Shown here piece after piece: positions 39,501 to 64,000 of a stretch of 64,000 bases of DNA (the stretch's first letter is position 1; every line of letters starts with the position of its first letter). Position numbers and translations under genes: made by a program. Location: assembly GCA_964035545.1 (NCBI GenBank), contig OZ037768.1:8650741-8714740 (forward strand), written 5' to 3'. Below the pieces are notes generated by a model. The model saw only the letters and a list, made by a program, of their open reading frames with translations, did no database searches and was not told the origin of the DNA. The DNA comes from Bugula neritina. Its lineage: Eukaryota > Animalia > Bryozoa.

Positions 39501-42500
39501 TGATAGATATGGACATCTCATCTTCTAGCTCTTCTGACAGTTCCAGTGATAACAGTGATAGTGATAGTGACCAGGAGACGAATAATGCTAAAGCAATGAA
39601 TTCTACTGGTCAGTCTTGCCTATGTGCTGCATAATAACTATCTACTTTATTATTCTCTATATTTTACTGAATTACATGTGTTACTATATTAAATGTTTTG
39701 TTAATATTACTGGGTATGTAGGGTGTAGTGTAGTTTATAGCATAGTATAGTATATTTTAGTTTATAGTGTATCATAGTATAGTGTAGTATATTGTAGATA
39801 TAGTATGATAAATGTAGTACAGTTTATAGTATAGTATAATAAGTGTCTAGTAGTGTAGTATACTATAGTATAATACTGTATAGTATAATACTGTATAGTA
39901 TAATGCAGTGCAGTGTTATGTCCACACAATGATTAGTATAAGACCAGAAGTTAGTCATAATGCTATTAACATAACTAATGCTAAGCCAGCATTCCATCAC
40001 CTAATTATGCTGATCTTTCTCTCATTTGTTTCATGAATGGCTTCAATGGATAATATCAATGGGCTCCTATAACGTTGTTATAATATGCTGGTGTGGCTAT
40101 CTTAATTATATCTGACCAGAAATACTACATTTTAAAGCCAGCTTATAGATGTTAATTTTGTATGAATTCAGTGTTACATTATTTAGTTGAAATTACCAAT
40201 TATATAAAAAAGTTTTTGATCGAAATTTAAATTTATTTTAGAATAATTGTAAGTTTTGATTAAAATTTGCTAAAGTGTAATTATACTTCAATCTAACAAA
40301 TAGTTGCTCTGGTTATGCCATATGTCAAACAGTTCAAACTCATCAGCTGAAACCCTACAACCAACACATTCTGCAGAAGGAGGGCTGGAGACACCCTAGA
40401 AATATAATAACTGAGTCTCCATCATGTTGCACTTGATTTGATTAATAGAATTTGGTGACATTAATTAGCTTTAGCAATGTACACCTGAGTTGGTTCAAGT
40501 TTTTCTTTGTTTATGTTTCTGTCAAATTAAGTTGTGTTGATTATTAGTGGTGCAGCTTTGTTTTTATTAGAGTTGGAACAAAATCATTTAAAATACCTGG
40601 AGAAAGTATATTGTTGATTGGTGAACTGGTATTTAATAGTGCAAAATGATGATAGATGAAATAATCACAATTTGTAATAATGTACTTAATTATAAATAGT
40701 TTAACCTTGATATCATAAGTATGAAGTGGGGAATAATTGCATACCAATGTCTGATAAGCTACTACAATGATGGAGAGTAGCTTCTAATATATATTCTGCT
40801 AGTAGCTAGTAAATAATATTATCCTCTTAATGGTATTACAAATATACGTTAATTAGTCTTAATCTATTTTGCTTGAAAATACTAATTTGTCATGTTATTT
40901 CTTTGAGTCCATTTATAAATTGGCCATTCAGTTCTCAACTAGTCAGTTTTAAGGCCACATTTCTTCCTTAATTTGGAAATTTTATGTGTAGACTCTTTAT
41001 TATTTTACAGAAAACAGTTAGAGGTGTTTTTCTTTAGTAGATGCCTTAAAAATTAATTGATTATTGTAGTCTAGACTTATTGCTTATAAGTTTATAAATT
41101 TAAGCTGGTTTCAAATTGCTCTGTGTATTGTATTACTATTTTATGGTACACATTACTATGATATTAAACTGGCAGTTTTTCTATTTGTTTTAAAGTTGGA
41201 ATTAAATTTAATTTCTGGGTTTTAAAAGTTTGGTCCAACTTTAGTAATCTGTATATTAATGTTAATAATTATTTTAACTTTACATGAATAATATGCAGAC
41301 CTTTTTGGTCCTTGTTTGATTGTAAACTCTTTTAGCATAGCTGTTGACATACAATTTTGTACACCTGAGGTAGTAAACTTAAAATGTTATATCGGTTTTT
41401 CGACTGAAGAGTTTTCAACTTAAATTTTATGTTGTTGATTTGTTAGCAGATTTACAAAAAGACAAAGGATCAGAAAACCGTCCCGTTAATACAGCACTTC
41501 ACACACAATACTTACACACACTAAGTGAGTACTACTTTATGTTTCATTATTTATCACTTGTGTGTTGTTGTTGCTTTCTTGAACTGCAGCAAGCTTGTAC
41601 CCAGACATTGCGTTTCTTTTTAATTTATAAAGTCATGCTGAGCGATCAAGTGAAGTGACTAAATGTGCCAGTTGCTGGTATCTGATTTCAACATCATCAT
41701 TTCTCATACAAGTAAATAAAAATTTGTTTAATGAGTAATTACAAAATAGTTTTAAAACAATGCATCAAAATTTCAAGTGTAAAACATACAGTTAGTTACA
41801 CGTGTCCGCTAATCAGTTTTTAACTACATCATTTATATACAGTGCTGTGAAAAAGTTTAAGGACGCCTCCCTGTTTTCCATAATAGCAATGTTCCAAGTT
41901 AATTTTAAGACATAACTAATGCATTTCCATAGGCATGATGCCTATCAAAATGATCCTCAAGATCTCCTTATCTCATTCATATAAATTATAAGTGTCTCTT
42001 TTTACTTCCTTCCAAAATTTGGGTAAAACAATGACATACTATGCATATATGGGAATTATTCAATGTTCTCACAATTTGTGTGTAGTGTAGGACATCAGAA
42101 TATTTTACTTGAAACATAGAAAAATATTATATGTGAATTGTTATACACATTATAGCAGCATTGCAACACACAGTGCTTCAAATTTTAGTATCAATGTTTT
42201 GTTGCCCAGCCTTTATTATCAATCACAAGTCGGCAGCGACGAAGCATCGACTTGTACAGCTTCTCCAACTCGTTTTCAGTCACGACATGATGCCATGCAT
42301 GAATTACAGGCTCTATGAGTGTCACCTTAGTTGTTGACTTCTGTGAAGAGAGTATTTTAGCCATTCTTGACCATGAATTTCTTATTGGGTCCAAGTCCCG
42401 GCTTTGTACTGGCCAGTTAAGCGTTGAGACCCTCTGCTTTTTCATCCACTTTTTAACTGTTTTTGCCCAATGGCATGGTGCATTGTCATCTTCAAATATG

Positions 42501-45500
42501 TTAATTTTATTTAAAAAGAAGTTTTTTATAATTGGAAGATGTTTAGCATTGAGATTCTCCATATATTTTTGAGCATTAACATCATTCCAGAGCAACTACT
42601 GAGTCGGCCTACACTTTTTGATCTTATACAACCCCAGAACATAACACCGATAGGGTGCCTAATTGTTCGAAGAATACATTAGGGGTTATATTTCTCCTAC
42701 TGGTACCTTTTAACACAACAGTTTCCAGCATGATTGTGCACATTAAATATGGATTCATCTGAAAAAAATTACTTTTTTCTAATCATTCACTGTCTAATTA
42801 CCAGGCTCCCTGGCCCACCATAACCGGCTTTTTTGCTGCTTCTCAGTTGGTTGAGGCTTCCTCTTGCTTTGCGGCCATGTAAACCATGGCTCAGCAATCT
42901 TGCCTTATCAGGGATGTTGAAGCTGGTGTTCCTGTTGATTCTGACTATTCTTTGCCTACTCAAGACTTGTTTTATGGCAATCTTTCTTGCTGATCCCAAT
43001 GGGAACCTTGTCATCTCTAGGTGTGCTTATTTTTGGTCGGCCATTTTCAGGTCCATCTGCTACACTACCAATGTCCATAAACTTCTTGATAATTTGATGT
43101 ACAGTTGTCTTTACTTTGCCAACCTCTTCAGATATTTTCCTAATTGAATAACCCTCTTTGTGCAAGAAAATTATTACAAACTTTGCCTCTGAAGGAAGAT
43201 TTACAGCTCTCATTTAGTCTATGCGCAGCGCCCAAGTAGACACCATGTAAAAGCTCACAACTAAATGACATACTTCAAATTATAAAAGGAAGTCATACTT
43301 TATGATACCATGATGCCATGCGCAAAGTCAAATTTCCCTATTTAGCCTTTTGTGGTTATAAAAGTTGATAAACTTTGGTTACATAAAAATACAGGAGTTG
43401 CGCTTCCCTAGCGGCTTGTGCAGTTGGCCCAAAAATGGGTAGAAAACATCACAACAGCAAGAATTTAAAAGATAAAAATTGTAGAGCACATTCTAAGGGT
43501 CATTTTGATATATAGAACTTGCAGGAAAATATTAAGAACTTACAAGAAATGCCTATTAAACAAGATACATAGAAATTTCTGCAAGTGTCCTTAAACTTTT
43601 TCACATCACTGTAGTTTACATGTAGGTGATAGTTGTCTCATTAAGTTTTGTATTTTTTGTTGGGTAAATGGGTGTTTGTGAAAGACTCCGTTGAAAAACA
43701 ATCACTTATTTGGTAAAAAATAATTGATTTATTTATTTATCTTGATTTTTATTTATTTATTAATTATAAGTTATCTTTATCTTAAAGTCGTGTAGGTAAA
43801 TCTGCAGCTTATGCAAGTAACAATCACATTTCCTTTAACTTATATATTAAAATAGTAGTGATAATCTGCATCAAACAGTGTTTTGTGGCCTGAGTAGGCA
43901 GATGATATATTTTCAAAATTTGCTAAAGGTAATATAAAATCAATAAATTATACTTATGACTTTAACATGGTAGTCTGATGCATCAAGCACATAAACATTA
44001 TATTTACTCTACTAATTTAGTTTTATTATCTACCAGAAATCCAGCTTAAATCAATAATTACACCATAAATAATAATTTACTTGTTTTCTCACGTAAAGCT
44101 GTTTTTAGGAAAACTCATGTTAGACAGCATGATGAGAATTCTGGCTAGGATATGCCGAGGCATCCGTGGATTTTTGTCTCCTCCTAAACCTATACTGATT
44201 GCTATAAATGTCTTGGTTAGTGAGCAACAAGTCCTGCTCTTTTCCATTTGGTAACCTCACTTTGACTGGCAACATGACAGAATTGGCTGTATCGGCATCA
44301 AATTTGCTCATACAGTTGGGTTTTAGACATTTACAGAGTAATGTGGTGTTGGTATTATAGTCTGATTGGATAGTTGCACTCGGCAAAGAGCCGTGCTCTA
44401 GTACCATTTGTTGTGATGTGGAGTTGCTAGATGAATTGGATGTCATGTGTTCCTTAGTTGTTGGTCCCAGCTGTTTGCCTGTCAGCTCATTGGCAGCATT
44501 GCCAGCTGTGTGTTCTGCTGCTTGATTTGTATAAGTATCAGTTTCAATATAATCATCAGCATTTTCACTTACACTTATATCTGTTGGATCCATTTTGTCT
44601 GGACCCTTTAAACCCGCAGGTAAATGTTTATTGGATAAAGCTAGAGTCGTAGAAGATTTCATGGTAGTGACGATAGCAAATCTACCTGCACCTGAACCTG
44701 GATGCATAAATGGTTTTGACTTGTGATCTTTTGGTGTTGCTTTGAATGTTGTTTCCATGGAAACTAAATTTTGTGAACCAGTGTATGCTTCGCTAGGATC
44801 CAAGGCCGATCGGCTACGCTGATGCACTACTTGAACTTCTTGTTGTGAGACATCAGATAGACTTCGGCTTAGATGCTGGTTCAACTTATCTCTACTGGAC
44901 CCGTGTTTCTCTCCGCCTCCATTCATGACTAACGCTTTTGGTTTGCTTGCGGATTTCCGTAACCTGCGTAAAGTTCCATCCCAAATGCCTCTCACAAAGT
45001 GTAGTGATGGAGCTGCTTTATCCCTTTGTGACGAACTTAGCTGGTTGAAATATTGATCTTCTGGTTCACCAGGTTTTATTTGCTTTTTCGAATGTCTTTG
45101 TAAGGAGTTTTGACTGAAATTCTTGAATCTGCTCATCCTTCTACTCCCTCTATTGGTGTTAGTAATCTCAAACTGCATATCATCGTTGTCAATCGTCATG
45201 CCAACCGAGCTGCTTGAAATTCCTGAAGCTGATCTTTGATGGTGAATCTTGGTTATTTTAGTTCTCTCCAAGGTGCCTGCTAAAGAGCCGTTTGGTGTGG
45301 CGAGCGTTTGTGTTACTTTTGGCAAATTTTCTGGTGCTGTTGGTACCACAACGTCTAGACTGTGACCCACTGAATTATTTATAGCTTCCTCATCTGTAGC
45401 ATGAGGCCTTGGTTTGTTTTTCAAAAAGCGTTTGCTTCGTTTTAAGCTTTTATTAAAGGCTATATTTACTACTGAATCTCTTTTCTCATCTTCTGGCTCT

Positions 45501-48500
45501 GAATCTGAACAGTCTCTTACCGTCCTTTTTACCACTAGTCTTAAATATTCACTCTTGTTATCACAATCTATGACTATTGGTTCGGCACAGATGGCACTTA
45601 TAGAGTTTCTAGCTGTCAAAGACATTCTACCTCCTCCTGGTTTCTTGGAGTTCAGAGCAAGACTTTCTGTCTCAATGCATGCAATTGATTGGCTCCGAAT
45701 CTCTTTTGAACTGCTTACTTTGCTGAGGCTGTTTAATTTGCTAGCATAGATGCCCCTGTTATGAGGTTGTGGCGATTTTAATTTTGGATTTGCAGTTGAA
45801 GAAAAAGGTATTCCATTTTCCTCGTTTATGATATGCTGCATTGCCGGGTAATTAATGCTAAATCTCCTACTCTGATGTGGTTTCTTATTTTCAATTTGTA
45901 TTTGTATGGGAGACACTTGCTCAGTTTCTACGATTTCTCTGTTACATCCCAATGGTGAGAGTTTGAGCTGATCAGAAGTTTGGGATGACTTAGTGGAAGC
46001 ATCCTCAGGGTTGTAATCATTAGATCCACCCACTCCAGAATCAAAGCTATATGCCGGTTCTGTTGGTTTCTCGGCTACCTTAGTTCTGCTCACCTTGAAG
46101 CTTTGCCGGATTTCGTAAGTGTCATATTTGTCAGACGTGCTGATGGTTAAATTTAGCAACTTCTTAATTCTGATTTTGAATCGTCGAATCCGAGCAGCGT
46201 ATATTGCAGGGTTGATGGCCGAGCTGGCTGGAGGAAACAACATGGCGGTTATTCTAACAATTGTCAGGATCTGATCTGCAACAGAATGGATCTGTTGACT
46301 CCAGTAAACATTTTGTTTTATTGGAATAAAATATTTACCGTCATCAATGTATGTCTGGATTAAGCTTTAGATTTATAATAACATGCCATGATTAAATTAA
46401 TCATTTAGTTATAAATGTGCATTTAGAGTTTCAACTTTGAACAAAATATTTGAAACACTGGTTAGTGTAAAAGTGAAATATTTTAGTCTAGTTATCACCT
46501 TTAACTGCTTACGTTCCCAGTTACCCGTAATTTGTCATTTCTTTATAAAATTACTAATTTGCTGATTCACCTCTAAATTACTCGACAGTTTAAGTTGTAC
46601 TTACTGTCTTTTAAATTTCCATACACTGTAGCTGATAGGAGGATTGTAAATGGTAACCAAAATAGTATAAATAAACCCAAAAGTATGAAGCCTGTTCGAG
46701 CTAGTCTTACATTCTGCATGTTTTTCTTGTCACATGAAGATACCTGGTAAACATACATAAGTGCTAGTAGCATTTATATGTGTAATTTAAATGGTCATTT
46801 AAACAATTGTATGCTCTCAACACAAGCGTCATACACTATCTGCCTAATACTAAAAAACACATTACTGAAAATATAAACTATAAAATTTAACTTTAAAAAC
46901 TTTTTCTACAAACTCAATGTAACTAAAAATAGTAATGCTTGTGTGTAACTTATTTCATCTTTTAACTTTTGATAAAAAGTTATAAAAAATTATTATTCAG
47001 ATTTTTGAGGAATTGGCTTACCTGTACAACTAGTAGTTCTATACTTTTAATTTGCTGTCTGGCTACAATCAATATCTTTATATACACTACGATGACACTG
47101 CCAAAGAGAAGGTAGGCTATTGGCAGCACAATGTAAGCCCAGTATTTTGGTGGTATGACACTCAACAAATCACAGTCAGCCTGTAAGATAAAAGGAAATT
47201 AGTATATTAAAAATCTCTCTCAACAGCTGCTCTATTCTTTTTGTATATGTGTAACCTATAGGCAACATTCCATTATTATGTTCTATATAAATTTTCTAGG
47301 TTATATTTAAAATTGCTCTAGACAGCATTTAAATTGTTCAAAGATTTCCTATTTATCCAGCTCTATATAGTAGATGAATAACAACTGAGGTGCCGATGCA
47401 AGCAAATAACGAGCTTCCATGCAAAACGAGTAACTTCCTCTAAATTTCTCGAATCAAACACATTTCAGCTATCAAACCTTTTGGATAAAAAACTGAAATC
47501 TTTGTTTTTATGTCTATGCTGTACACTTTTTGCATTATAAATACAAGCTGTGTGGGTGAAAAAGATCAAAATATGTGACAGCTAACATTAAACGCTGGCC
47601 AAAGTTACAGTGTGAGTGACACTTAAACAGTCATTCACATCACAAGCTCCGTTTATTGTATCTAATTCCTATTTCCTGTTTTTAATTTCCTATTATCGTT
47701 TGTGGAAAATTTTCTAGAAACACCAGTAGCACTGGAAACTTTTTTTGTAATGCATAGAATACAGTTACATGAAATTAATATCATACATTCTAAGTTGTTC
47801 ATTTACTTTTAATCTCTAAACTCTGAACAAAATTCGACAGATTCTAGCAAACTGTTTGCAATTGGCCAATCTGTGGCAAACAGTGTTGTCATTTAAAACA
47901 AGACTAGCCATTAGAAAATGCTTGTCATTTCCAAATTTCTAAAACTTTAAACATTTGTCTGAGCTGCTGATTAGTTACTTTGGACTGGGATGTACGATTG
48001 AAAGTTTAAGTAAAAGGAAGAAAACTAAGCTTTAATATTCAAAAAGATTCATTATGATAGTATTTTTTGTAGAAAAAATATGTTACTTATTTTATATCAG
48101 TTCTTGGCTGTTAGTTCCCTTTTATGAGTGCAGTTCATAACATATTAAATAATATACTAAAAAGGAGTGATAGTCAGACTTACTTTGCTAGAAATATTGA
48201 GTGAGCTGGTATGTAGTAGAGCGAATGGAATGATGCCCATTATTAGTATAGTTAGAATCCAGGCCATGGCAACCAGGGTGTGCCGTCTTCCTTTCGTGAA
48301 TATTTGTTGGTGATGAAACGGATACACCACAGATAAATATCTTTCCACTGTTATCAGAAGCAGGCATAGAGTACTGCTGCCTAAGGGAATTGCTAAAAAG
48401 AGTTATATGCACATGTGTATCAGCAGCTGCTTGTGTTGGTCACATCATAGACCTCTATAGTCACACCATAGACCTCTATAGTTACACCATAGACCTCTAT

Positions 48501-50591
48501 CGTCACTACATGTAGCCTTTTTAGTAAAATGTTGACACCAAATGATTGGAAATTAATTCCTATTTAGAGATTTCTCTTTTGCTGTGTTTTGACTGGTTTC
48601 TCACTCTTAATCCTGAGACTAATCAGGTCAACCACAATGTCACATAATCTGCCTAACTAATTAGCATTATTTTATTAAGTATTATTAGTTGTGAGTAAAT
48701 TTTGAGAAGTGGTCATTACTTGTTTACTGCAGCACAATACCTAAACTCTGCTTTCACTCAGTATTGATATTTAAATATCTAATTGTCAAGATAGTTTAAA
48801 ACTACTATAAGGATAACATGATAATATTATATTATAGTCTGTAGACCCTGCGATATAAAATATAATAAACTGAAAAGAAGTCTACTCATTTAAATTATTT
48901 ACTGGTGGAACAAAAAGCTGTTTACTGGTGGAACATAATGCATTTTTGCATCTTATAATGAAACTTTCAGCTCATGCATTTTGGTTAATGTCTTTTCAGT
49001 GTAATTTTATCAGCACTAATTGCTGAAGGTTACATCTGATCATATCTTAATGAATATACACTTTGTAATTGAGCATGGCAACATTTGCCCTCTACACGCA
49101 GTACAACAGCTACAGGTTCTCATCCACACTTACGATGTCTTCATTACTACATAATATAAAGGTTTCACCTACCTATTACTGAGAACTGTACAATACAAAA
49201 CCATTTAGACATGGAATCAGCTGGTACGTAGTATATAGCTGTACTTATTGGTATTGTAATGCCAACTATCAAATCGGCTATCACAAGGTTCACCAGGAAG
49301 AAGTTGCTGACTGTACGAAGTTTTCGGTCAGATATATAAGCAGCAATAACCAGTCCGTTGCCAAATAGTATTATGACTGCCATAATTAGCTCTACTATTG
49401 TTACTGGTATCTCAAACGGGAATTTTTCAAGTAGATGTTCATCTCCTATATCGTTTCCTGAGTTGGTGTGGAAACAGTTCTCCAGGTTCTTACAATTATC
49501 AGCCATTGCCCCTTTCGAACCTCCAATATCACTCTGCAAGATCACTTTATTTACAATATTCTACTATTATGTCTTTGATTTTGCATCATAAATGTTCCTT
49601 TAAATAGCCTATAAGCTTTCTAAACTACTCTCAAAGATATTCATTCTACCATGGTGGGCAAACAAATACGACCATTAACCAAATTAGCGCCTTAGACTTA
49701 CAACAAAAATCGACTTGGAACATTTCAATGTGGTTGAATGTTTTGAAAAATCTCTAAAATTGTGTTTTTTGCACATTCAAAAGTCCCAATTAATTGATGG
49801 GAGTAATAGATATAATATACATGAATGGGTATCTCCCATATCTAAATTACCTATTTTAGTATCAGCTTACTATCCTTTCTTCTTCCCATGCTCAGTAGAG
49901 AGCTGCAGATGGTAAACTGTTCTCACTGCTAGGTTTAATCTGACTGGCTATTCATCACTCTCTGAAGCTTCATACTTAATACTGGTTTCTAGTGATTGGC
50001 TAATTAATCTGATAATCCGGAACAACTAATCCTTCAGCAACACTCATTTTCTTATTCTAATTGAATCGATTTGACATGCTAACTCATTACTACAGATTCC
50101 CATTGAGATAAAGCTGCTGATTATGCTAACTAAATATATACAAAGTGTTATAACCCAGAAATGCCACAAAGGACTAGATGTACAGCTGGTGAAAAGCTAC
50201 AGTTTGCTATATTTTTAAATTGTTTGAACCTGTACCTCGGTGAATGGTGCATTAGGGCCATATAAATAGTTGATACAGAATCTTCACCTACCAGCGTCTA
50301 GTTGGAGTAGAATATTTTTTACATTTCAGCTAATTTTTAACGAATAGGGTGATTTCAAGTGGTAGTATTTAATGCTTGTACATATAATATTGCCCTCGGG
50401 TGCACTATTAAAAAACAAACATTCGTATTATAACTTGTAGTGGCACTTTATAATTAAGTATACAATATTTTAATCAGGGGAGTGGAAAAAGTTTTATAAA
50501 CAAATGTAAGCATATGCTACTACAATGTTCTGATGTTGTTTTAGGTCAAGACCTGAGACTCAGTGAAAGTTCTGAAGATGATAGTGACTGA
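36591..50591 (+). CDS. EAF1: ELL-associated factor (EAF1/2 family), 7 coding exons
   Basis: Exons 36591-36696, 37265-37359, 37902-38038, 39149-39351, 39507-39608, 41447-41524, 50545-50591, with consistent phases. Translation includes [56 protein letters not shown], a Ser/Asp tract, and the family C-terminus [19 protein letters not shown]. Confidence 0.93.
39718..39915. repeat. (TATAG/TGTAG)n degenerate microsatellite
   Basis: Directly visible pentamer tract in an EAF intron. Confidence 0.85.
41840..43611 (-). mobile_element. Tc1-family DNA transposon, full length (1772 bp), defective
   Basis: TA flanks on both sides; 25-bp terminal inverted repeats CAGTG(C/A)TGTGAAAAAGTTTAAGGAC; internal transposase remnants. 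Confidence 0.95.
42191..43213 (-). pseudogene. Tc1 (DD34E-type) transposase pseudogene
   Basis: HTH/GRP region ([28 protein letters not shown]) and catalytic region ([24 protein letters not shown]) lie in different frames; the Glu of the usual DLNPIE motif is replaced by Arg. Confidence 0.9.
44120..49506 (-). CDS. Class A (rhodopsin-like) GPCR with very long C-terminal tail, about 998 aa; nested in an EAF intron
   Basis: Exons 49506-49173, 48392-48184, 47180-47022, 46743-46605, 46275-44120, phases consistent (2997 nt). Motifs: TM1 GNGLV, TM2 NLVIADL, TM3 C..ERY, TM4 W, TM6 FWLPF, TM7 NPAIY. Ligand class not assignable. Confidence 0.92.
48446..48506. repeat. 21-bp minisatellite (CATAGACCTCTATAGTCACAC), about 3 copies
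   Basis: Directly visible in GPCR intron 1. Confidence 0.9.
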
Positions 50592-51488: not shown

Positions 51489-54400
51489 CTAAGATTCTGC
51501 AGCTTTAGTTTTAGATTTTTTATTTAATAACTTGTTTCTTTGATGCTTGTTAAGCCTGGTACGTTCTCTTATTCTCTTCTCCCATTTCTCCTGCACCATA
51601 GTATAGAGTCTCATTGTAGCTTGAGCATCTTGTATCTAAAACAGACAACTACTGCAATACACCGATGTAAATGGCTACTTGATGATTCATTGCAAGTCCA
51701 TAAATTCAGAAAATTAGCAGTAAAGCCAGCAAATTGTATAATTCACAACTTCTCCAGAGATTTATACTCAACCTGAGACATTCCATACGTTTGGGAGTTT
51801 TCTCAAGTTCTCATAAATATTCAGATTAGGAATTGTAATTTCCTTTATAATAGTCAGTTTTAAAAGCTAAGTTCTACTAGAAGGTGAATTCTGGACGTAG
51901 TAGCTACTATACTTGAAAAAGGACACTCGAGCAAATCTTTATCAATGAATGTCACACTGTATTTATCTAGGTAGAGGAATGCATAATCCAATTGCTACAC
52001 ATATCAATAATGTCTTCATACCATTTTCCAGCCATTTCAACATGTAAAAACCATATAATTACTGAGCAACCACAGTGTTAAATCTTACCGAACTATGTTC
52101 ACCACTTTGTATTTTTATGCCTAGGACTTTTTGTGCCAGCATTTTCAGACTAGGTTTCCTGCCGCCAACTAAATTTCTAAAGCCAGGGTACTTTTGAGTA
52201 TCTCTCACATATTTCTTGGGATGATTTAGAAAAAGCACCTACAACAGGCCCATATTAAATACTATGCAACGCATCAGTTGAAGGTAAGGAAATCCTGCAG
52301 ATTAGAAAACTAGGAGTTTTGGAAAAATAAACCTGAAACACTAAAAGATGAGGTTTAGTAGAATAATGCTGTGGTAATAGGCGGAAATACATTACATTAA
52401 GTGAAGTTTAATGATTAGTCACAGTGTAGCACACAATATATCTTAGCAGATCAATTATTTTTACTTAGCAATTATCTACTAATCCTGTTTTCTATTTACT
52501 GAGAAAGATTCATTGGCTGTGAACTGAATATTTTAAACATCTTAGCAAGTTGTTAAGTTTTATTTCAAGGATATAAATTGTATATAATCCAAATCTTGTA
52601 GTGCATGGCCTTCATATAAAGAACCCTACAATATTTCGCCATCAGATAATCTGACCAAATGCTAAATATATAATAAAATTGGAGCAGCTGTGGTGTGGTG
52701 TAGTCGCTAGATTGTTGGCCTGGTAAACACTTGGTCAGTGATACAGTCCAAACACCAGTGGTGATGTTAGGGAGAGCATCCAGTCATAATTACTCCTAAA
52801 CCAAAAGATCTTTCCACCATAGGTTCTCACGGGATAAAGACTATAAACTCATGCCAGTGAAATATATATTGGGATTTATCTGGTTAGCAATTCCCAATAA
52901 AACAAACCAGCAGTAATCTTACATTCATTTTACAACCAATACATTTTGATTAACTTGAACTTACTAATAATTAGATGCTAGCCATGGATTGAGAGTGAAA
53001 AGCTACAACTTCAGTTAAAATTGACGAATAACTGAAATACAGTACAATCCCATTAGAATACAATATCTCAGCTATGTTCGTTAATAGCTGCCTAACTTAA
53101 AAATAATGAAATATATCAATTTTATACTGACTTTTTCATCATTACTAATAGAGTGACCAACTAACAGCCTCCCTTTAAACATTTCATTCACTTCTTTTTG
53201 CACAGTCTCCAAATCTTCAGCTACAAAAAACATTACCGGAAGTTGTCTTTTTAAAAAAGAACATTAATAGTTTACCAATAATGTTGTTAACTAAGCTTGC
53301 CTGACATTATTGCCAAAATCTTAAATTTAGCAGTGCAGCTTACATTGAGGATCAATTCCTTATGTACGTTGAAATCAAGAAGTGAGATTGATTAGTAAAT
53401 GAGTAATGCTGAGCAAACGCATCTTAACATGTGCTTTCATGATGCCAAGGCACTGCTCACATACAAAATTTCATTAAAATAAATGCTAGTCAAAGAATGT
53501 AAGCGATAACTAGACTGTAGATTGTAATCAAGTAGCTCAAAAAATGAGAGCACAACTCCTAATGAACTAGAAATATGGCTCGGAGCAGAGCATTAAAAAG
53601 AACTCATAGTATTCGAACTTAGATAGTATTATGAAGGACACACTTTAGAAAAACCAATTATAATTTATTCTAGCAGCTAAACTAAAATGACTGCTACATT
53701 AAACATTAGAAGCTCTGTGTCAACAAATTGAACGTAGTGTTTCATGCTAAGAAGTACATACAGAAAAACAACTTTATAGTTTTCGGTAAATAAAGTATTA
53801 AAAAAGTAAATATTAATTACATAATATAGAATTTGTGACAAATTACCATCCTCGAGATCTTCTGGTCTCACACCGCTCACCCAAGTTCTATAATCTGTCA
53901 CTTCTTCTTTAGGCTTCACAAATTTATCATAAACACAGTGTCCGTATTGATTGACGACAGAGATGCGAGCTAACACAGAATCATCACCAGACGGCCCCAC
54001 GCCAACCATTTCACAATCCATAGCTAAGCACTTTGTCAGTCTGAAAATAAATCTGAACATCATTGTATCTCTAACCACCATGTCTCAATTTAATCCAAGA
54101 CATGTATGCAAGTGTTGAACAATCAACAGTTGATATGCATGGAGTGTCGATTATGTAGAACTTAAACTTACACTGCTTTAGTTCCTGGCTTAATCAGTAC
54201 ATCAGTACTGCCATTTTCATCGATGCCTGTGTGATCCTCTTGTACTGGTTTCTCAATAAATATATTTTCAACATCGTCAAACCACAGTTCATGTTCCCTA
54301 AGATAAACATAAAATAATAATTGAAAATCACTAATAAGAAAGTTAATTTCAACTTCAACGAAGATAATAAATTGAAGACAGCTTAAAACTCACAAAGTAG

Positions 54401-55058
54401 AAATTCAGATATTAAAAAGTGTGTGAATGATACTGAACTTTACAGGAGATTTTTCCTCAATAGGTTTTTGCTTAGGACTCTCTATTTTTTTCTTTTTGAT
54501 TCCAAGTTTCTAAAAATAAATTGCCATTCCACCAACTATAAATCATTACAACTAAACAAAATTAAAGCAAAAAGTTATCAAGAAGCATTGTACGAATGAT
54601 TAAGGAGAACAAAAACTTTAAAATCATCAGAATACCTTGGAAAGGTCCTTCCAATTTTTATCTATCTCTTGGTCATGCAACATGTCTACAGCATCTGTGA
54701 TTTGGGGAGTTTTCTGTATTGTTTTCTGTTTGGCATTTTTTCTTTTCGGTCTAGGTTTAGCATTTTTAGTGTGCGCTTCTGATGTGGAACATTTTGCAGT
54801 TTTAATGTGATCACCAACTGTTTTCTTCTTTTTAACAATGTTTTTGGTGGCAGTTATTTGAGAATCTTTATCAATATCTACAGCAATTTTAGAAGATTTT
54901 GTGAGCTTCTTTGTAGATCTAGATTTTGCTTTCAAAGCTTCCTTTTTCTTGACTTTTAATTTAAGAGTTTGATTTTTTATTGATCTTCGCTGTCTTTTGC
55001 TAAGTTTTTTCTGCGCGTCTTCTTTTGTAGGCAGATCAGAATTTATACTCATTATCAT
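51489..55058 (-). CDS. REXO4: RNA exonuclease 4 (DEDDh)
   Basis: Lys-rich N-terminus, [82 protein letters not shown]. Approximate exons: 55058-54636, 54509-54439, 54297-54171, 54040-53847, 53220-53132, 52238-52089, 51635-51489. Confidence 0.94.
52690..52815 (+). mobile_element. Possible degenerate tRNA-derived SINE
   Basis: A-box-like TGGTGTAGTCG, weak B-box-like GTCCAAAC, then GGGAGAGCATCCAG resembling the GGAAGGGCATCC motif of some invertebrate SINE cores. A similar head may lie on the minus strand near 10570-10600. Confidence 0.35.
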
Positions 55059-56556
55059 CAAGTCAATCTATTAATATGAAAGTATTTTTAATAAGCAATG
55101 CATTTAGATGAGAACATTAAGTTAGCGGCAAGAAATTACAAAATTGATACCGAATGTATCATCTACCAAAGCTTATAATCCAAGACACATCTCTATAACA
55201 CGTCATGTATTATACACGTAACTCTCTCCAAATCCATATGAATAAAATTAACCTAATAATTTACCAAATTTATCAGAGCAAGAATTATAATAAACATTTT
55301 ATTGAAGTCAATAAACTTTTATATCAATTAAGTACGTACTATTTTTTGCGAATGTAGGATACATTTGTGATATTTTGCTGCTGAAATAAGGTGATTACAT
55401 TAATAATAAATGTGAACAATGTTGACCCGATTCGAAGTTTGTGGAGATGTGAAGCCTAATTATTGACAAATTATAAGCCTGAGTTGTTAACATTAGATTT
55501 ACAAATTCCATTGTTTGAGTTGCAAATTAAACAAAATCTTAATCATCACCACTACTAGCCGCTTCCCAAGGTTTGATAATGATAAAATTAAAAAACAGTG
55601 TTGGTATTTATTTTTTTAATATTTTTCGTAAAAGTGGTAATAGTTCAATAATTCTAGCAGCTGTTATATAGCTATGTTGAGACGGCATCAGTAATTGCAA
55701 CATGTCCAAATTGATATTTAATTTTTCCTAATTTAATTTGAGTCTAAAGGATTTTATTTGCTTGTATTGTTCTAATTCCCATACCATTACTACTATTTAT
55801 ACATCAATAAAAACACGTTTGTTTGACAGCATAACAAGCGTCAATTGAAAAGGTAACTAGTGTCCACAAAAACAAGGTGCGTACAAAAACTAAAATTAGT
55901 GTATTGGGAATAAAAGATGAAAACTTCCAATAATACGCAACAAGCTTGAATATTTTTTTGGTTGCAAATTTTCTTAAAATCTTTATATTAGGCTATTTTG
56001 TTAGTGGTCTTTGCTTGGTTTATTTTCAACATTACACGTAAATCTGTCTCCCCCTCCCATCACCAGAACTTACTCAAAAATGGGGAATTAGACTTGTGGT
56101 GCCATCTACTAATACTAATATCACTCTAATACTACAACAAATAGTAAGTTTTAATTCATCACCATGTCTATGACTATGACCATCACCATGACTATGAGTT
56201 TTGGTATGAGTATGACCATAACAGTCGGAGTCACAGCATCACTATGACTAACACACTCATACTCTTATTTTGACTTTTACAGTTACTGTGTCTTTAAGAT
56301 ATATTTATAATTATTAGTTATCATTATGATTATGACTTACAGTTAATGTTACTCATAGTCAAACTGATACTGATTCAACTTTGTAGTGACAGTCACACTC
56401 ATACGCACTCTCAGTATAATTATAATCATAATGGCCTTGAACTTTATAACTACAAGTATATGTATAATTATTTTTATTAGTATACATATTGATATTGTAC
56501 TTGATATATTATATTTATAATAATTATAATCAGATTTTTATTAATAATAATGTTAA

Positions 56557-58110
56557 TGAGAAATGGGAAATCACCAGGGCCGGATGGTATCCGAAAGCCG
56601 GACCTCATGATCGACATCCCAGCAACTGCTGATTGCCTCAAAAAGATTTTCTGTGCATCCCTAAAGGTAGGAAAGCTCCCATATTAGTGGAAAATTGCTC
56701 ACATTACCCCAATTCACAAGGGAGGAGAAACGAATCTTGTAACTATCGCCCCATTTCTCTCACATCTATACCATGCAAGATGATGGAACATATTGTTTTT
56801 CACTACTTAAATGAAAAGCTGGACAAAATTCTTCACAACCGGCAACATGGTTTTCGCAAAGGTATGTCCTGTGAAACACAGCTCTGTGCCACCTACCACA
56901 ACATTGTCAAATCAGTGGAATCTTCATATACAACGCATGCTATCATCTTAGATTTTAAAAAAGCTTTTGATAAAGTCCCTCACTCCCTGTTGCTACAAAA
57001 GCTAAGGCAGATTCCTGACCTATCCCTCTCTTAGCAAATTGGATACAAGATTTCATAACACAGAGGATGCAAAGTGTTGTGATTAAAGGAAATATCTCCA
57101 CTCCCTGCATGGTCACATCTGGTGTTCCTCAAGGATCTGTTCTCGAACCGACTCTTTTCCTATTATATATAAATGACCTACCAAAAGCACTTACCTGCAA
57201 TGTAAGCCTCTACGCTGATGATACTCTCATATACCAGAAAGTGAACTCTAAGGAGGAGTCTATGGAGTTTCAAAAAAATATAGATGCAGTTTATCAATAG
57301 TCTCAAAAATGGAGAATGCCCTTCAATATCACCAAATGCCATGCGATGAGTTTTAATACTACAGATACACTTCCAACATATAAGCTTGGACAGGCAAGTA
57401 TCCCATGGGTGGACAGCACTAAGTACCTAGGGGTCACTCTGCAGCAAGATCTTAATTTTGATCAACATATTTCTCAAAAGATAGATAAGGCAACAAAAAT
57501 TTTTGGAGCTATTAAGTATACGCTAAACTGTGCCCCAATACCAAACAAGCTGCTAGCTTACACTAGCTTATGTAGGCCAATACTAGAATATGCTGACACT
57601 TTATGGGACCCTGCAAAAAAGCAGACAGCAGAACAAATTGAAAACGTGCAACGGAAAGCTGTACGTTTCATCAGCAACCTAAGAGGGAGAGAGAGTGTGA
57701 GCGACGCAAGACAGCGGCTTGGTCTCATACTGCTAGCTGACAGGAGAAAGAACCACAGAATCACCTTACTGTTACGCATTCTACGAGATGAACAACGCCA
57801 CCATGTACTCTCATGACTAGCTATGATGAAATTCTCAAGTCCCGAGCAGATGCTAATATGACAACCCGTGCTGCCAGCAGAGGAGAACTAACATCAATCT
57901 GGGCTAAATCCAAACTCTACTATGACAGTTTCCTCCCACAAACCATACGTGACTTGAGGGTAACTAAGAACTAACAACCAAAATCAGCGAAATGCTGTAA
58001 AATCAAGTCACTCTGAAACACACTGTTTTGTTATAAAGAGGCATTCTTTTTTTTGCACAATTTGTGATCCAGAATGTACTATGGACGTCGAGTAAGTATC
58101 GAGTAAGTAA
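56557..58110 (+). mobile_element. 5'-truncated non-LTR retrotransposon (CR1/L2/Jockey-group LINE), reverse transcriptase pseudogene
   Basis: GKSPGPDGI, NYRPISLTSIPCKMMEHI, QHGFRKG.SC, LDFKKAFDKVPH, GVPQGSVL, YADD, KYLGV, RPILEYA; broken by stops and frameshifts; ends in a duplicated TCGAGTAAGTA tail; AAT-rich flanks. Confidence 0.93.
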
Positions 58111-61053: not shown

Positions 61054-61435
61054 TGTTATTAAATAGTGAATACATTTTGTGGATATTGTGATAAACTTGT
61101 GGGTTGAATGTAACTTAGTGCAGAACAAGATAGGTTGAAGTAGTAGAGTTCCAAATGTTTATTATAGTATAAAAATAATGTCAACTTGTCTAGGCGAGCT
61201 CCAGTAGTAGACTGGCTTAACACCGTAACTCGCCTGCTTTTATATACAGCGAACAAAAGAACATAAAACAAAGAATCTTTTGTGTGTGTGGCCCGAAGTT
61301 CGGTAGCTCCGAAATTCGGCAGGCCCGAAGATCGGGGGAACCGATCTTCGGTCAAGCCGAAACTCGGAACTCCGAATTTCGGACCCCAATTAACATTATT
61401 GAACAAAAGAACAAACCAAGGCATAATCTATCACA
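61054..61435 (-). repeat. 3' LTR (about 382 bp)
   Basis: Starts TGTGATA after the polypurine tract, ends ..AATAACA; contains TATATAAAAG (about 61247-61238) and AATAAA (61163-61158) on the minus strand. The far boundary is inferred because the 5' LTR is outside the window. Confidence 0.75.
61293..61382. promoter_or_regulatory. Array of six CCGA-N3-TCGG palindromes in LTR U3
   Basis: Copies start at 61293, 61309, 61325, 61341, 61357 and 61372 (spacing 16,16,16,16,15). Arms are invariant; centres and spacers vary. The array is observed; its regulatory role is inferred. Confidence 0.8.
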
Positions 61436-61644
61436 CACACCCCCTATCGGAAAGCATGCTTTCCGATACGAGGGCGAATAATAACATAATAACAATGAGA
61501 CAGACAATAAACAAAACAAAAAAAAGAAACAGAAGAGAGAGAACAAAGAAACAAAACAAAACAAAACACCAAGTACATAGTATAAGGGACAACGAATATG
61601 TATAACAGAGAATTGTCATGCCACCAGTCAGGGAGAGGCGGGTC

Positions 61645-63996
61645 TCACTCCCTCCATGTCCCATCGTCGTTGTCGGTCTGACGTCGTTCCAGCCGGATCA
61701 GTCGTCGTCGCAATTGTGTCAGATCTTCCTCACACCGTGCCACGCGGCGCCGTAAGTGGCGCACCTCCTCTTCTAGTTGCGGTCGGGAGCGGAGTGTGTT
61801 GCGCTCCGGGTGTTGTCTGTGCTCTGGGTGGTGTCTGCTTGCCGCCGAGGAGCGGGGGTCCAGGTCCGATGTACCGGGTCTGGCACCATCCCCGACCCTT
61901 GTCAGCATGACCCGAAGAGGCTGGGTGGCTGCTGGTTGGAGGGCGGCGGCGGGTTCTCCGTCTTCTTCTTGAATTGCTCTGCACGCCGGAAACCCTTGGC
62001 CGAGGGTGGCACGCTTGTGGGGGTCCGCGACGTGCGGCAGGATGAGGTCCCGGAACTCCGGAAATGTGGCCTGATCCACGGTGAACACGTGACCTGGGTG
62101 GCAGCGCGAGATGCGCTGGTGGCGCAGCACATAATCCCGCTGGTAGGAGTATTCGCCGCAAGGGCAGAATACGTTGATGAAATGTTGTGGGGCGTGAACA
62201 CGCAACCGCCGGGAGGAGGAGAATTTCCTCCGACATTGCCGGCAGATGCGGTTGCCCGCTGCCCCGCATGCTTCACTAATCTTCTGATTAGTGTCGCGAG
62301 AGACCCAGGACTGGCGGGCGACCAGTGCCTGGGGTAGAGCCAAGGTGGGGGTGTCACCGTCTTCAGCTCGAGTAGAGGAGGGCACACCGCATAGTATTCC
62401 CTGTTCCTCCCCGGCGGCTAATTGTAGCTCAACTGGGTTGGCGACAGGGTCACTATTCATGGTGGATAGCACCTCAGTCCGGTCTGTGGCGACCCGCGGG
62501 CTGCAAGGAGCCGTCACGGGGGCTGGTGGAGGGGGGGAGTCGACTCGACTGACCTCCACCTCATCACACTCCATTGCAGTGTCTACAATAGACAGCAGAG
62601 GCCGAGTAAGGCCGGTCTCGCCGTCGCCGAAATTCGGCATCGCCTTATAGGGTACTTTGTGGGTGGTAGGGAGCCGAGGTGAGTCATGGAGAGTGACTGA
62701 CCCTATGTCCTGGTCTAATAAAAACTCATTTAGAGAGTCTTCTCCAAAACTCACATCGACTTCCTCCGTTAATAAATTAGATTCTAACAAATCTAAACTA
62801 GCCCAATTAATTACAGTTGAGTCAGACTCCGGTACGGGAGGCTCTGACTCTAATGAAATACCTGTGTTTGTAGTGTTGTTACCGGGAAGAGTAATACCCA
62901 TATCCAATTCGTGATTAATTCGATTACAAGTTTCAGCTTTAAAATTGCGTGTTACTAGTGGGTTAGTAGTAGTGCAAATGGCCGAGCCTCGTGTTTCAAT
63001 ATTTTTACCTGCTACGCGATCGTGGGGAATTCCCATCGAGTTTTGAAGGGACAACTCAGACAATCGCGTGCCCTCCGAATTTCGGTTTGCAACTGTTCCT
63101 TTTTGTAGTGATTCTCCAGGAGGTTGGAAGAATTTACTAACTAAGGAGGAGTAATGGCCCTGGACAGATGGATTCCCACTTGGGGGGGGCAACCCTAGGT
63201 GTCCTATGTGATAGTCTGCCAGATATCTGGGTGGTTTCCTCGCTCGCTGGCTCCTTTCCAGCGGTGTGGGTGCTGGTGGTGCCAGTTGCTCCTCAGTTGC
63301 CACCGTAGGGGGGTCCCCGCCTTCACCCGTAATACGGGTGGGGGTGTCCTCCCCCCAGAGGGGTGGTGGCTCTGGGGCGTGTTGCTGCTGCTGCTCCTGC
63401 CTCTGTTGTTGTTCCAACTGTTCTCGTAGGGCAGCCTGCTCCTGCTCTGCCTCCCTTCGGATGACAATTTCCACCTCCCGGGGCCGGGTGGCTCTCCCCC
63501 GCTGGTTAGGCTGGCGGTTGGGCTCCAGGAGGGGTGGAGCCTGACCCACCGCGTCTGGGCTGGCATGGTATGGTTTCAGGCGCTGTTCGCTCTGGACTGA
63601 GACCTGTCCAGAGCGCTCCACACGGTATGTGTGGTTGGCCAGCACCTCCACCACGCAGTAGGGACCCACGAACTTGGGCTGAAGTTTAGCCGACTGTCCG
63701 CGTCGCCTACGATAGCTCACCATCCAGACCCAGTCTCCCACCTGATACAATGGGGGCTCTTCTGAGTCCTCTGTGCGGATCTGCCACTGCTGGGCCCGCA
63801 GTGCATCATGGGCTTTACCCATGATCTCTGTCAGTCTTTCGACGTACTCATGTACCGGCGATTCGGGGGCGGGAACGTGGTATGTCAGGTGTTCCGGAAC
63901 CCGCGTTTCCCGGCCTAGCATCAGGAAGTTTGGGGTCTCCTGTGTGGTGGAGTGTGGTGTGCTGCGGTAAGCCCGCATGATTTGTGGCAGCACCAC
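61645..63996 (-). CDS. Gypsy pol C-terminus: integrase plus long extension with C2H2-type fingers and leucine zipper (5'-partial)
   Basis: LPQIMRAYRSTPHSTTQETPNFLMLGRE; GPY/F module YQVGDWVW..KLQPKFVGPY; terminal motif RSQRARKPPRYLADY; then about 520 further uninterrupted codons. Confidence 0.9.
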   Translation of the reverse strand: MVLPQIMRAYRSTPHSTTQETPNFLMLGRETRVPEHLTYHVPAPESPVHEYVERLTEIMGKAHDALRAQQWQIRTEDSEEPPLYQVGDWVWMVSYRRRRGQSAKLQPKFVGPYCVVEVLANHTYRVERSGQVSVQSEQRLKPYHASPDAVGQAPPLLEPNRQPNQRGRATRPREVEIVIRREAEQEQAALREQLEQQQRQEQQQQHAPEPPPLWGEDTPTRITGEGGDPPTVATEEQLAPPAPTPLERSQRARKPPRYLADYHIGHLGLPPPSGNPSVQGHYSSLVSKFFQPPGESLQKGTVANRNSEGTRLSELSLQNSMGIPHDRVAGKNIETRGSAICTTTNPLVTRNFKAETCNRINHELDMGITLPGNNTTNTGISLESEPPVPESDSTVINWASLDLLESNLLTEEVDVSFGEDSLNEFLLDQDIGSVTLHDSPRLPTTHKVPYKAMPNFGDGETGLTRPLLSIVDTAMECDEVEVSRVDSPPPPAPVTAPCSPRVATDRTEVLSTMNSDPVANPVELQLAAGEEQGILCGVPSSTRAEDGDTPTLALPQALVARQSWVSRDTNQKISEACGAAGNRICRQCRRKFSSSRRLRVHAPQHFINVFCPCGEYSYQRDYVLRHQRISRCHPGHVFTVDQATFPEFRDLILPHVADPHKRATLGQGFPACRAIQEEDGEPAAALQPAATQPLRVMLTRVGDGARPGTSDLDPRSSAASRHHPEHRQHPERNTLRSRPQLEEEVRHLRRRVARCEEDLTQLRRRLIRLERRQTDNDDGTWRE

Positions 63997-64000
63997 GTCC

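Follow-up and report, generated by a model that had tools for sequence, protein, structure and literature searches.

We analyzed a 64,000-nucleotide stretch of the Bugula neritina genome (contig OZ037768.1, positions 8,650,741 to 8,714,740; hereafter the window), the last 2.9 kb of which hold, on the minus strand, the 3' end of a long terminal repeat (LTR) retrotransposon. The surrounding genome is that of an animal, AT-rich, with introns and depleted of CpG; the observed/expected CpG ratio is 0.41 in the host flanks versus 0.79 in the element. The LTR has TG...CA ends and a polypurine tract (PPT) ahead of it, and the pol frame ends in an integrase with a GPY/F and SH3-type C-terminus, recognized with Pfam scores below the cut-off (SH3_Tf2-1, Table 1, and MLVIN_C, E = 4e-04). 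Judged from the LTR and the integrase C-terminus, the element is of the Ty3/Gypsy type; its 5' part lies outside the window. Behind the integrase, the same open reading frame (ORF) continues into what we call the module: about 420 linker residues that include an acidic/hydrophobic patch (residues 399–433; such a patch had been noticed in the first-pass annotation of this DNA), followed by a two-finger domain and a C-terminal coiled coil. That annotation had also proposed that the module may regulate its own element, as activator or repressor, through palindromic CCGA-N3-TCGG sites in the LTR, or that the sites may serve recognition of the LTR by the integrase. At the level of sequence, our analysis supports this self-regulation in part, with a host factor containing a SAND domain as a real rival.

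The two-finger module and its relatives

The first-pass annotation had described two C2H2-type fingers and a terminal leucine zipper. Only finger 1 (C586-C589-H602-H606) is a canonical C2H2 finger, with Pfam scores under the cut-off, because finger 2 follows the atypical pattern C-x1-C-x12-H-x5-C (C612, C614, H627 and C633) and there is no TGEKP-type linker: five residues join the fingers, and both this linker length and C-x1-C occur in 97/97 family domains, as the construction of the motif dictates. The heptad repeat (residues 742–773) was confirmed, with L, L, C, L and L in the d positions, V, V, L and L in the a positions, and opposite charges in 4/4 g-e' pairs, which is what is expected for a parallel homo-oligomer. 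The basic region of a bZIP protein (N-x7-R/K) is absent from the translation ahead of the heptads, where a proline is found instead. Because there is no adjacent basic region, the tail is a plain coiled coil and not a bZIP.

The AlphaFold2 model of the finger domain showed one compact domain (pLDDT 96.2, pTM 0.87). A Foldseek search with this model gave no match at E ≤ 0.001 and a fold comparison gave none with Z ≥ 5; the nearest solved folds were DNA-binding C2H2 pairs, matched weakly (best Z 3.8, rmsd 2.7, 57 aligned). A two-copy complex prediction for residues 555–784, in which the alignment was not used, scored 0.09 against a mark of 0.32 and counts neither way.

Initial searches returned 3 and 25 close relatives, and a profile of the finger domain retrieved 269 cluster representatives at E ≤ 0.001, 112 of them at 1e-10; the best 150 of the 269 were inspected. 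Database names, checked for 10 relatives, read only 'hypothetical protein', and no Pfam family was found for the domain, 40 aligned members giving only sub-threshold C2H2 matches. The family motif can be written as W...C-x2-C-x9-18-H-x3-H-x5-C-x-C-G-x5-R-[DE]-x4-H, and behind it come a strand and helices. In the 97 domains that bear it, the basic residues of both recognition helices are conserved, and the candidate DNA-contact positions are kept at high frequency (R/K597, 86%; R598, 75%; R/K600, 78%; R621, 82%; D/E622, 90%). Among the 47 proteins whose C-terminus extends far enough, 27 have a heptad tail, compared with 2.7 expected by shuffling (about 12 members of the set are close relatives), and of the 15 whose N-terminal part is long, 8 have an acidic patch, compared with 2.8 expected. 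By these comparisons the module is conserved, with a predicted anatomy like that of an activator.

The module can persist without integrase, as P0155 and P0166 have a protease joined to it via a long linker, with neither reverse transcriptase nor integrase in between (for P0155, no such Pfam hit); both are candidate non-autonomous elements that retained the regulator. Long fusion proteins were not found among 7597 candidates of 806–2300 aa, a weak negative, since P0155 and P0166, which are of that length, were missed. In P0031 and P0053 the finger domain occurs twice with one terminal coiled coil, so that a monomer could read two half-sites. Six relatives (P0108, P0117, P0124, P0136, P0142 and P0157) carry W-R-E in place of S/Q-R-D in finger 2 and L/F-H in place of Q-H in finger 1, and this subgroup may recognize another motif. 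Four loci from the metagenome scan described below (L034, L066, L072 and L127) encode the finger domain plus coiled coil in an intact ORF of about 390 aa at 39% GC, with no LTR, a splice-acceptor-like sequence before the ORF and one or two half-sites upstream; two further loci (L096 and L117) hold a broken copy of the module.

Palindromic sites in the window element and in an independent element

Eight exact CCGA-N3-TCGG sites were found in the 64 kb; across 100 shuffles the average was 0.02, and no shuffle contained more than 1. As the first-pass annotation had reported, six of them form an array upstream of the TATA box and the other two lie inside the ORF. The array (61293–61382) is in U3 and stops 46 nt short of the TATA box (61246–61238), on its upstream side; the internal sites are at 62627 and 63075. 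All 48 arm bases of the array are invariant, whereas the spacers vary almost at random, with a mean pairwise identity of 0.40 for N3 and 0.20 for N5, indicating that the array is not a fresh tandem duplication. Every half-site contains one CpG, and the R/U5 part of the LTR contains no half-sites. A heat-shock element was considered as the identity of the array and rejected, as the spacing does not fit its consensus. A frameshifted copy, P0025, reads into its own LTR, where five of the six sites are compatible and the spacers have changed.

Two perfect internal palindromes were reached by 62 of 5000 synonymous shuffles. The peptide over internal site 1 has a match in P0002 and P0047. At internal site 2 the peptide varies mostly where the spacer permits (N/K, F/I), and it is fully compatible with the site in 12 of 18 spanning sequences; at the DNA level, 17 contigs from four runs showed a single arm change in one lineage, a weak comparison because the contigs are related and the table of differences is partial. 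A synonymous change at 62647 weakened the idea that an invariant TATA box is concealed beneath the conserved PYK peptide.

Arrays of CCGA-N3-TCGG with a 15–16 bp period were also observed in 23 phage contigs (L009–L031, viral contigs). Of 14 overlapping ORFs scanned there, 10 were replication-initiator-like, three were repeat proteins and one had no match; we take these arrays to be iterons inside the initiator gene. The same site grammar arose in phages for an unrelated self-encoded binder, and the array alone is not diagnostic.

An independent element came from a degenerate pattern scan of metagenome contigs, in which a locus was called real if its profile score exceeded 30 bits. Of the 96 loci, seven were real, two weak and 87 due to chance; pattern matches in viral and genome contigs contained no real ones (0/8, 0/1 and 0/3), and neither the viral nor the metagenome contigs yielded DNA from close relatives. 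One real locus, L094 (4530 bp), was assembled through a single LTR and ends within the protease. The locus contains the last part of a module ORF and a purine tract, then a 719-bp LTR with TG...CA ends, a primer-binding site (presumably tRNA-Leu-like), a gag region that includes a CCHC knuckle, and a protease with a frameshift. Over 91 aa, the finger domain of L094 shares 37% identity with that of the window element and has the same key residues; no DNA alignment between the two elements exceeds 18 nt. The module stands in the same position, before the PPT.

In the U3 region of L094, 16 CCGA/TCGG half-sites form two clusters that precede the TATA box (2.3 expected; 0/1000 shuffles). Three pairings have the form CCGA-N1-TCGG and the remaining spacings are mixed, so it is the half-site clusters, not the N3 phase, that accompany the module. 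In an unbiased ranking of all 4-mers, CCGA took the top rank in each of the two U3 regions (z 6.9 and 9.4); the chance of this is 1 in 136, or 1 in 10 when only CpG-centred words are counted. A spread of half-sites through the coding DNA of L094 was rejected with synonymous shuffles for the linker (25 vs 22.4; 294/1000) and the protease (8 vs 8.1), gag being the exception (19 vs 12.0; 9/1000). The co-occurrence of module and palindromes that the first-pass annotation had asked to see tested has one independent case in its favor as far as the clusters are concerned; the phased N3 palindrome is not conserved.

Table 1. Positions of the features discussed, given in window coordinates
Feature	Position	Strand	Remark
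3' LTR, 349 bp, 7-bp inverted terminal repeat	61087..61435	minus	start possibly 4 nt earlier (61439)
AATAAA polyadenylation signal	61158..61163	minus	consensus match
LTR TATA box	61238..61246	minus	consensus match
Six-palindrome CCGA-N3-TCGG array in U3	61293..61382	.	starts 16, 16, 16, 16, 15 bp apart
Short polypurine tract before LTR	61440..61448	minus	
Perfect 24-bp palindrome plus two further half-sites, overlapping the PPT	61445..61468	.	predicted RNA hairpin
Open frame from integrase C-terminus through linker, acidic patch and finger domain to coiled coil	61645..63999	minus	784 aa seen, 5' end outside window
C-terminal coiled coil, residues 742–773	61681..61776	minus	heptad repeat
Compact two-finger domain, residues 555–674, with flanking helices and strand	61978..62337	minus	
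Met476, second conserved Met, downstream of acidic patch	62572..62574	minus	14/19 spanning sequences
Internal palindrome 2	62627..62637	.	within ORF
Acidic/hydrophobic patch, residues 399–433	62701..62805	minus	predicted activation domain
Met367, candidate start of separate 418-aa product	62899..62901	minus	putative start
Internal palindrome 1, 11-mer identical to LTR sites 2 and 6	63075..63085	.	within ORF
Integrase C-terminal GPY/F and SH3 region, residues 85–131	63607..63747	minus	Pfam SH3_Tf2-1, E 7e-07, 29.7 bits, cut-off 30

Possible modes of action of the module

LTR retrotransposons are generally taken to borrow the transcription factors of their hosts, and self-encoded DNA-binding activators are known from complex retroviruses and plant DNA transposons. 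Based on the sequence comparisons above, we lean towards the view that the module is a sequence-specific activator of its own LTR, similar to Tas of foamy viruses and possibly made from its own start codon. The best candidate for such a start is Met367, which was present in 13/13 aligned spanning sequences, always followed by G, D or E (a codon that begins with G), and internal in 7 of the 13. The linker around it is otherwise poorly conserved and AT-richer, with the GC content falling to 0.40–0.50 at 62650–63249. Met367 is preceded by internal site 1 at a distance of about 175 nt, and an internal or spliced transcript for the module is plausible. A branch-point-like TACTAAC word was noted upstream of Met367 (~62980–62990, minus strand), where the overlying peptide is not conserved in relatives.

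According to the activator model, the module would be made as a protein of its own, with translation most probably starting at Met367 of an internal or a spliced transcript, or else be cut from the polyprotein, and its coiled coil would pair two copies. Each finger domain would read one CCGA half-site, using the arginines that are conserved in finger 1 together with the Arg-Asp pair of finger 2, and the long linker between the fingers and the coiled coil would tolerate a change of spacer (N3 in the window element, N1 in L094). Several dimers on the array would bring the acidic patch near the TATA box, resulting in positive feedback, and the two internal sites could let the factor tune its own production. 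If this is true, the replication cycle would gain positive feedback from a Ty3/Gypsy-encoded activator with a predicted 4-bp half-site, a possible explanation for bursts, and hosts would be offered a new family of DNA-binding domains for co-option, together with ready-made pairs of factor and site. A broader version, which we regard as possible but rather doubtful, holds that an old and widespread animal lineage of Ty3/Gypsy elements represents 'complex' retrotransposons, in which the new two-finger family autoactivates the LTR from an internal transcript as an independent invention of the Tas circuit, and was repeatedly taken over as host transcription-factor genes.

Several observations weigh against the activator model. 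Met367 was the start chosen by the gene caller in 6 of the 13 sequences, and the module frame is continuous with the integrase, at the usual location of targeting domains. Of the 269 relatives, just a few were seen in a retroelement context, and the family of L034, L066, L072 and L127 is a candidate domesticated host gene. The peptide over internal site 2 is absent from the P0004 group and from P0039 and P0045, a synonymous change at 62635 breaks an arm of this site (one lineage; one of five non-identical X1 contigs), and the TATA-like stretch before it is variable, as the change at 62647 shows. The spacer differs between the window element and L094. Only two LTRs were compared and both have the same half-site, hence there is no co-variation, and a related module-less Gypsy element, sought as a control, was not found; the pattern common to both LTRs would also follow from descent or a host factor that the two elements share. 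Finally, TTCG, the half-site of DEAF1, is contained in 9 of the 12 half-sites of the window.

This last point bears on an unlikely but serious alternative, in which the array serves as an enhancer for a host factor for CpG motifs (a SAND protein of the DEAF1/GMEB type or similar), with the module acting as an add-on to the integrase that anchors integration on chromatin or DNA in the manner of a chromodomain. DEAF1 does bind TTCG half-sites (PMC4274154), and the module is in frame with the integrase, an integrase-tail motif preceding it also in P0002, P0003 and P0161. However, the sites selected by DEAF1 were repeats of TTCGGG in which 6, 8 or 9 nt separate the CpGs, and the 7-nt probe was bound less well (PMC4274154), whereas the arms here are inverted, with 5 and 7 nt between the CpGs, and L094 fits poorly, as only 6 of its 16 half-sites have the form CCGAA/TTCGG. 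Moreover, tethering requires neither an acidic patch nor a conserved internal Met nor a terminal coiled coil, and P0155 and P0166 retain the module without integrase.

It is distinctly improbable, in our view, that binding of the module to the sites represses the element or limits its copy number (for instance through a short form that starts at Met476 and lacks the acidic patch), or that the module works there as an anti-silencing factor similar to VANC, keeping the CpG-rich U3 unmethylated. Met476 is conserved and lies downstream of the acidic patch and 52 nt past internal site 2, but the patch itself is widely retained. For anti-silencing, one can point to the CpG in every half-site and to the higher CpG ratio of the element, although low CpG depletion also fits a young element. 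VANC targets are tandem motif clusters in non-coding parts of the elements (PMC5735166) and VANC motifs are family-specific, whereas our two elements have the same half-site; the half-site spread in L094 coding DNA was mostly gone under synonymous shuffles. That the sites serve integration, with the integrase-fused module recognizing LTR DNA, or act as RNA hairpins is very unlikely: the in-frame fusion and the 24-bp palindrome that overlaps the PPT, with a hairpin foldable there in both elements, are in line with it, but the array lies 50–140 bp inside one LTR end, the U5 end has no half-sites, and 4-bp arms with free loops make poor hairpins.

Comparison with known systems and other features of the window

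Since the activator model likens the module to foamy-virus Tas/Bel1, we compared the two (PMC4929722). Both are element-encoded factors that precede the 3' LTR, with DNA-binding, activation and dimerization parts, which in the module are predicted; for BTas, binding sites are described in the LTR and at the internal promoter. Tas, however, is a separate ORF of complex retroviruses with a proven internal promoter, whereas here a two-finger domain is in frame with the integrase of a Ty3/Gypsy-type element, and binding and promoter are putative. The Pfam hits at E ≤ 10 included no family related to Tas/Bel1. VANC of the VANDAL DNA transposons is an element-encoded DNA-binding protein with short target motifs clustered in the non-coding DNA of its element, as is predicted for the module; it belongs to plant DNA transposons, its motifs differ by family and methylation is lost (PMC5735166). 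Here, by contrast, we deal with a retroelement and with the same half-site, at a different spacing, in two distant families (n = 2). The system also resembles Spm TnpA, and the available part of that source makes no mention of LTR elements (bioRxiv 10.64898/2026.08.24.746577). The system of the window element belongs to none of Tas, VANC and Spm TnpA.

Among animal LTR retrotransposons, Cer1 of Caenorhabditis elegans encodes a regulatory protein with a cysteine motif, CERV; this protein is made from a spliced mRNA and acts on the export of unspliced RNA, not on LTR DNA, and its anatomy differs (PMC10309623). Additional ORFs of plant elements, such as gene 23 of Grande, lie between pol and the 3' LTR and have been proposed to be regulatory, one with its own promoter, but they are mostly antisense, and no pairing of fingers with sites is described in the available text (PMC7264820). 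The sections at hand of reviews of extra ORFs and domains do not describe such a system (PMC7264820, PMC6431247 and PMC9289625), nor does that of a survey of annelid LTR elements, in which 'zinc' has no occurrences (PMC8220671). The first-pass annotation knew of no description of this architecture, and none turned up in the literature searched, a scope outside which Repbase entries and subscription journals fell.

With respect to single domains, finger 1 and the two-finger arrangement align weakly with Kaiso/ZBTB33 and SALL4 (Z 3.4–3.8; profile E 2e-04), from which the module is set apart by the CxC of finger 2, the missing TGEKP-type linker and the extra helices and strand within one 120-aa domain. 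Chromodomains and other C-terminal add-ons of Ty3/Gypsy integrases follow GPY/F in frame and target integration; unlike in these, the finger domain here is surrounded by the ~420-residue linker, the acidic patch and the coiled coil.

Between the end of the frame and the 24-bp palindrome lies a U-rich 3' UTR. A hairpin covering the PPT can be folded in both elements (window 61445–61468; L094 minus strand, ~2180–2213; no shuffle control). Near 61083, nine run X3 contigs diverge from the window sequence with mixed continuations. A run X1 contig identical to 61924–63313 has a depth of 745, while other compared contigs have mostly 34–101, which fits a young multi-copy family; depth is not copy number, and X1 is possibly the source of the window itself. 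Elsewhere in the window are a Tc1/mariner transposase-like fragment (42194–42595, as we take it to be), presumed GPCR-like exons with a very long C-terminal exon of 748 aa (44123–49560), exons like those of what is presumably an RNA exonuclease 4 gene (53677–55067) and, on the plus strand, a broken reverse-transcriptase fragment that we assume to be of the LINE family (56560–57970).

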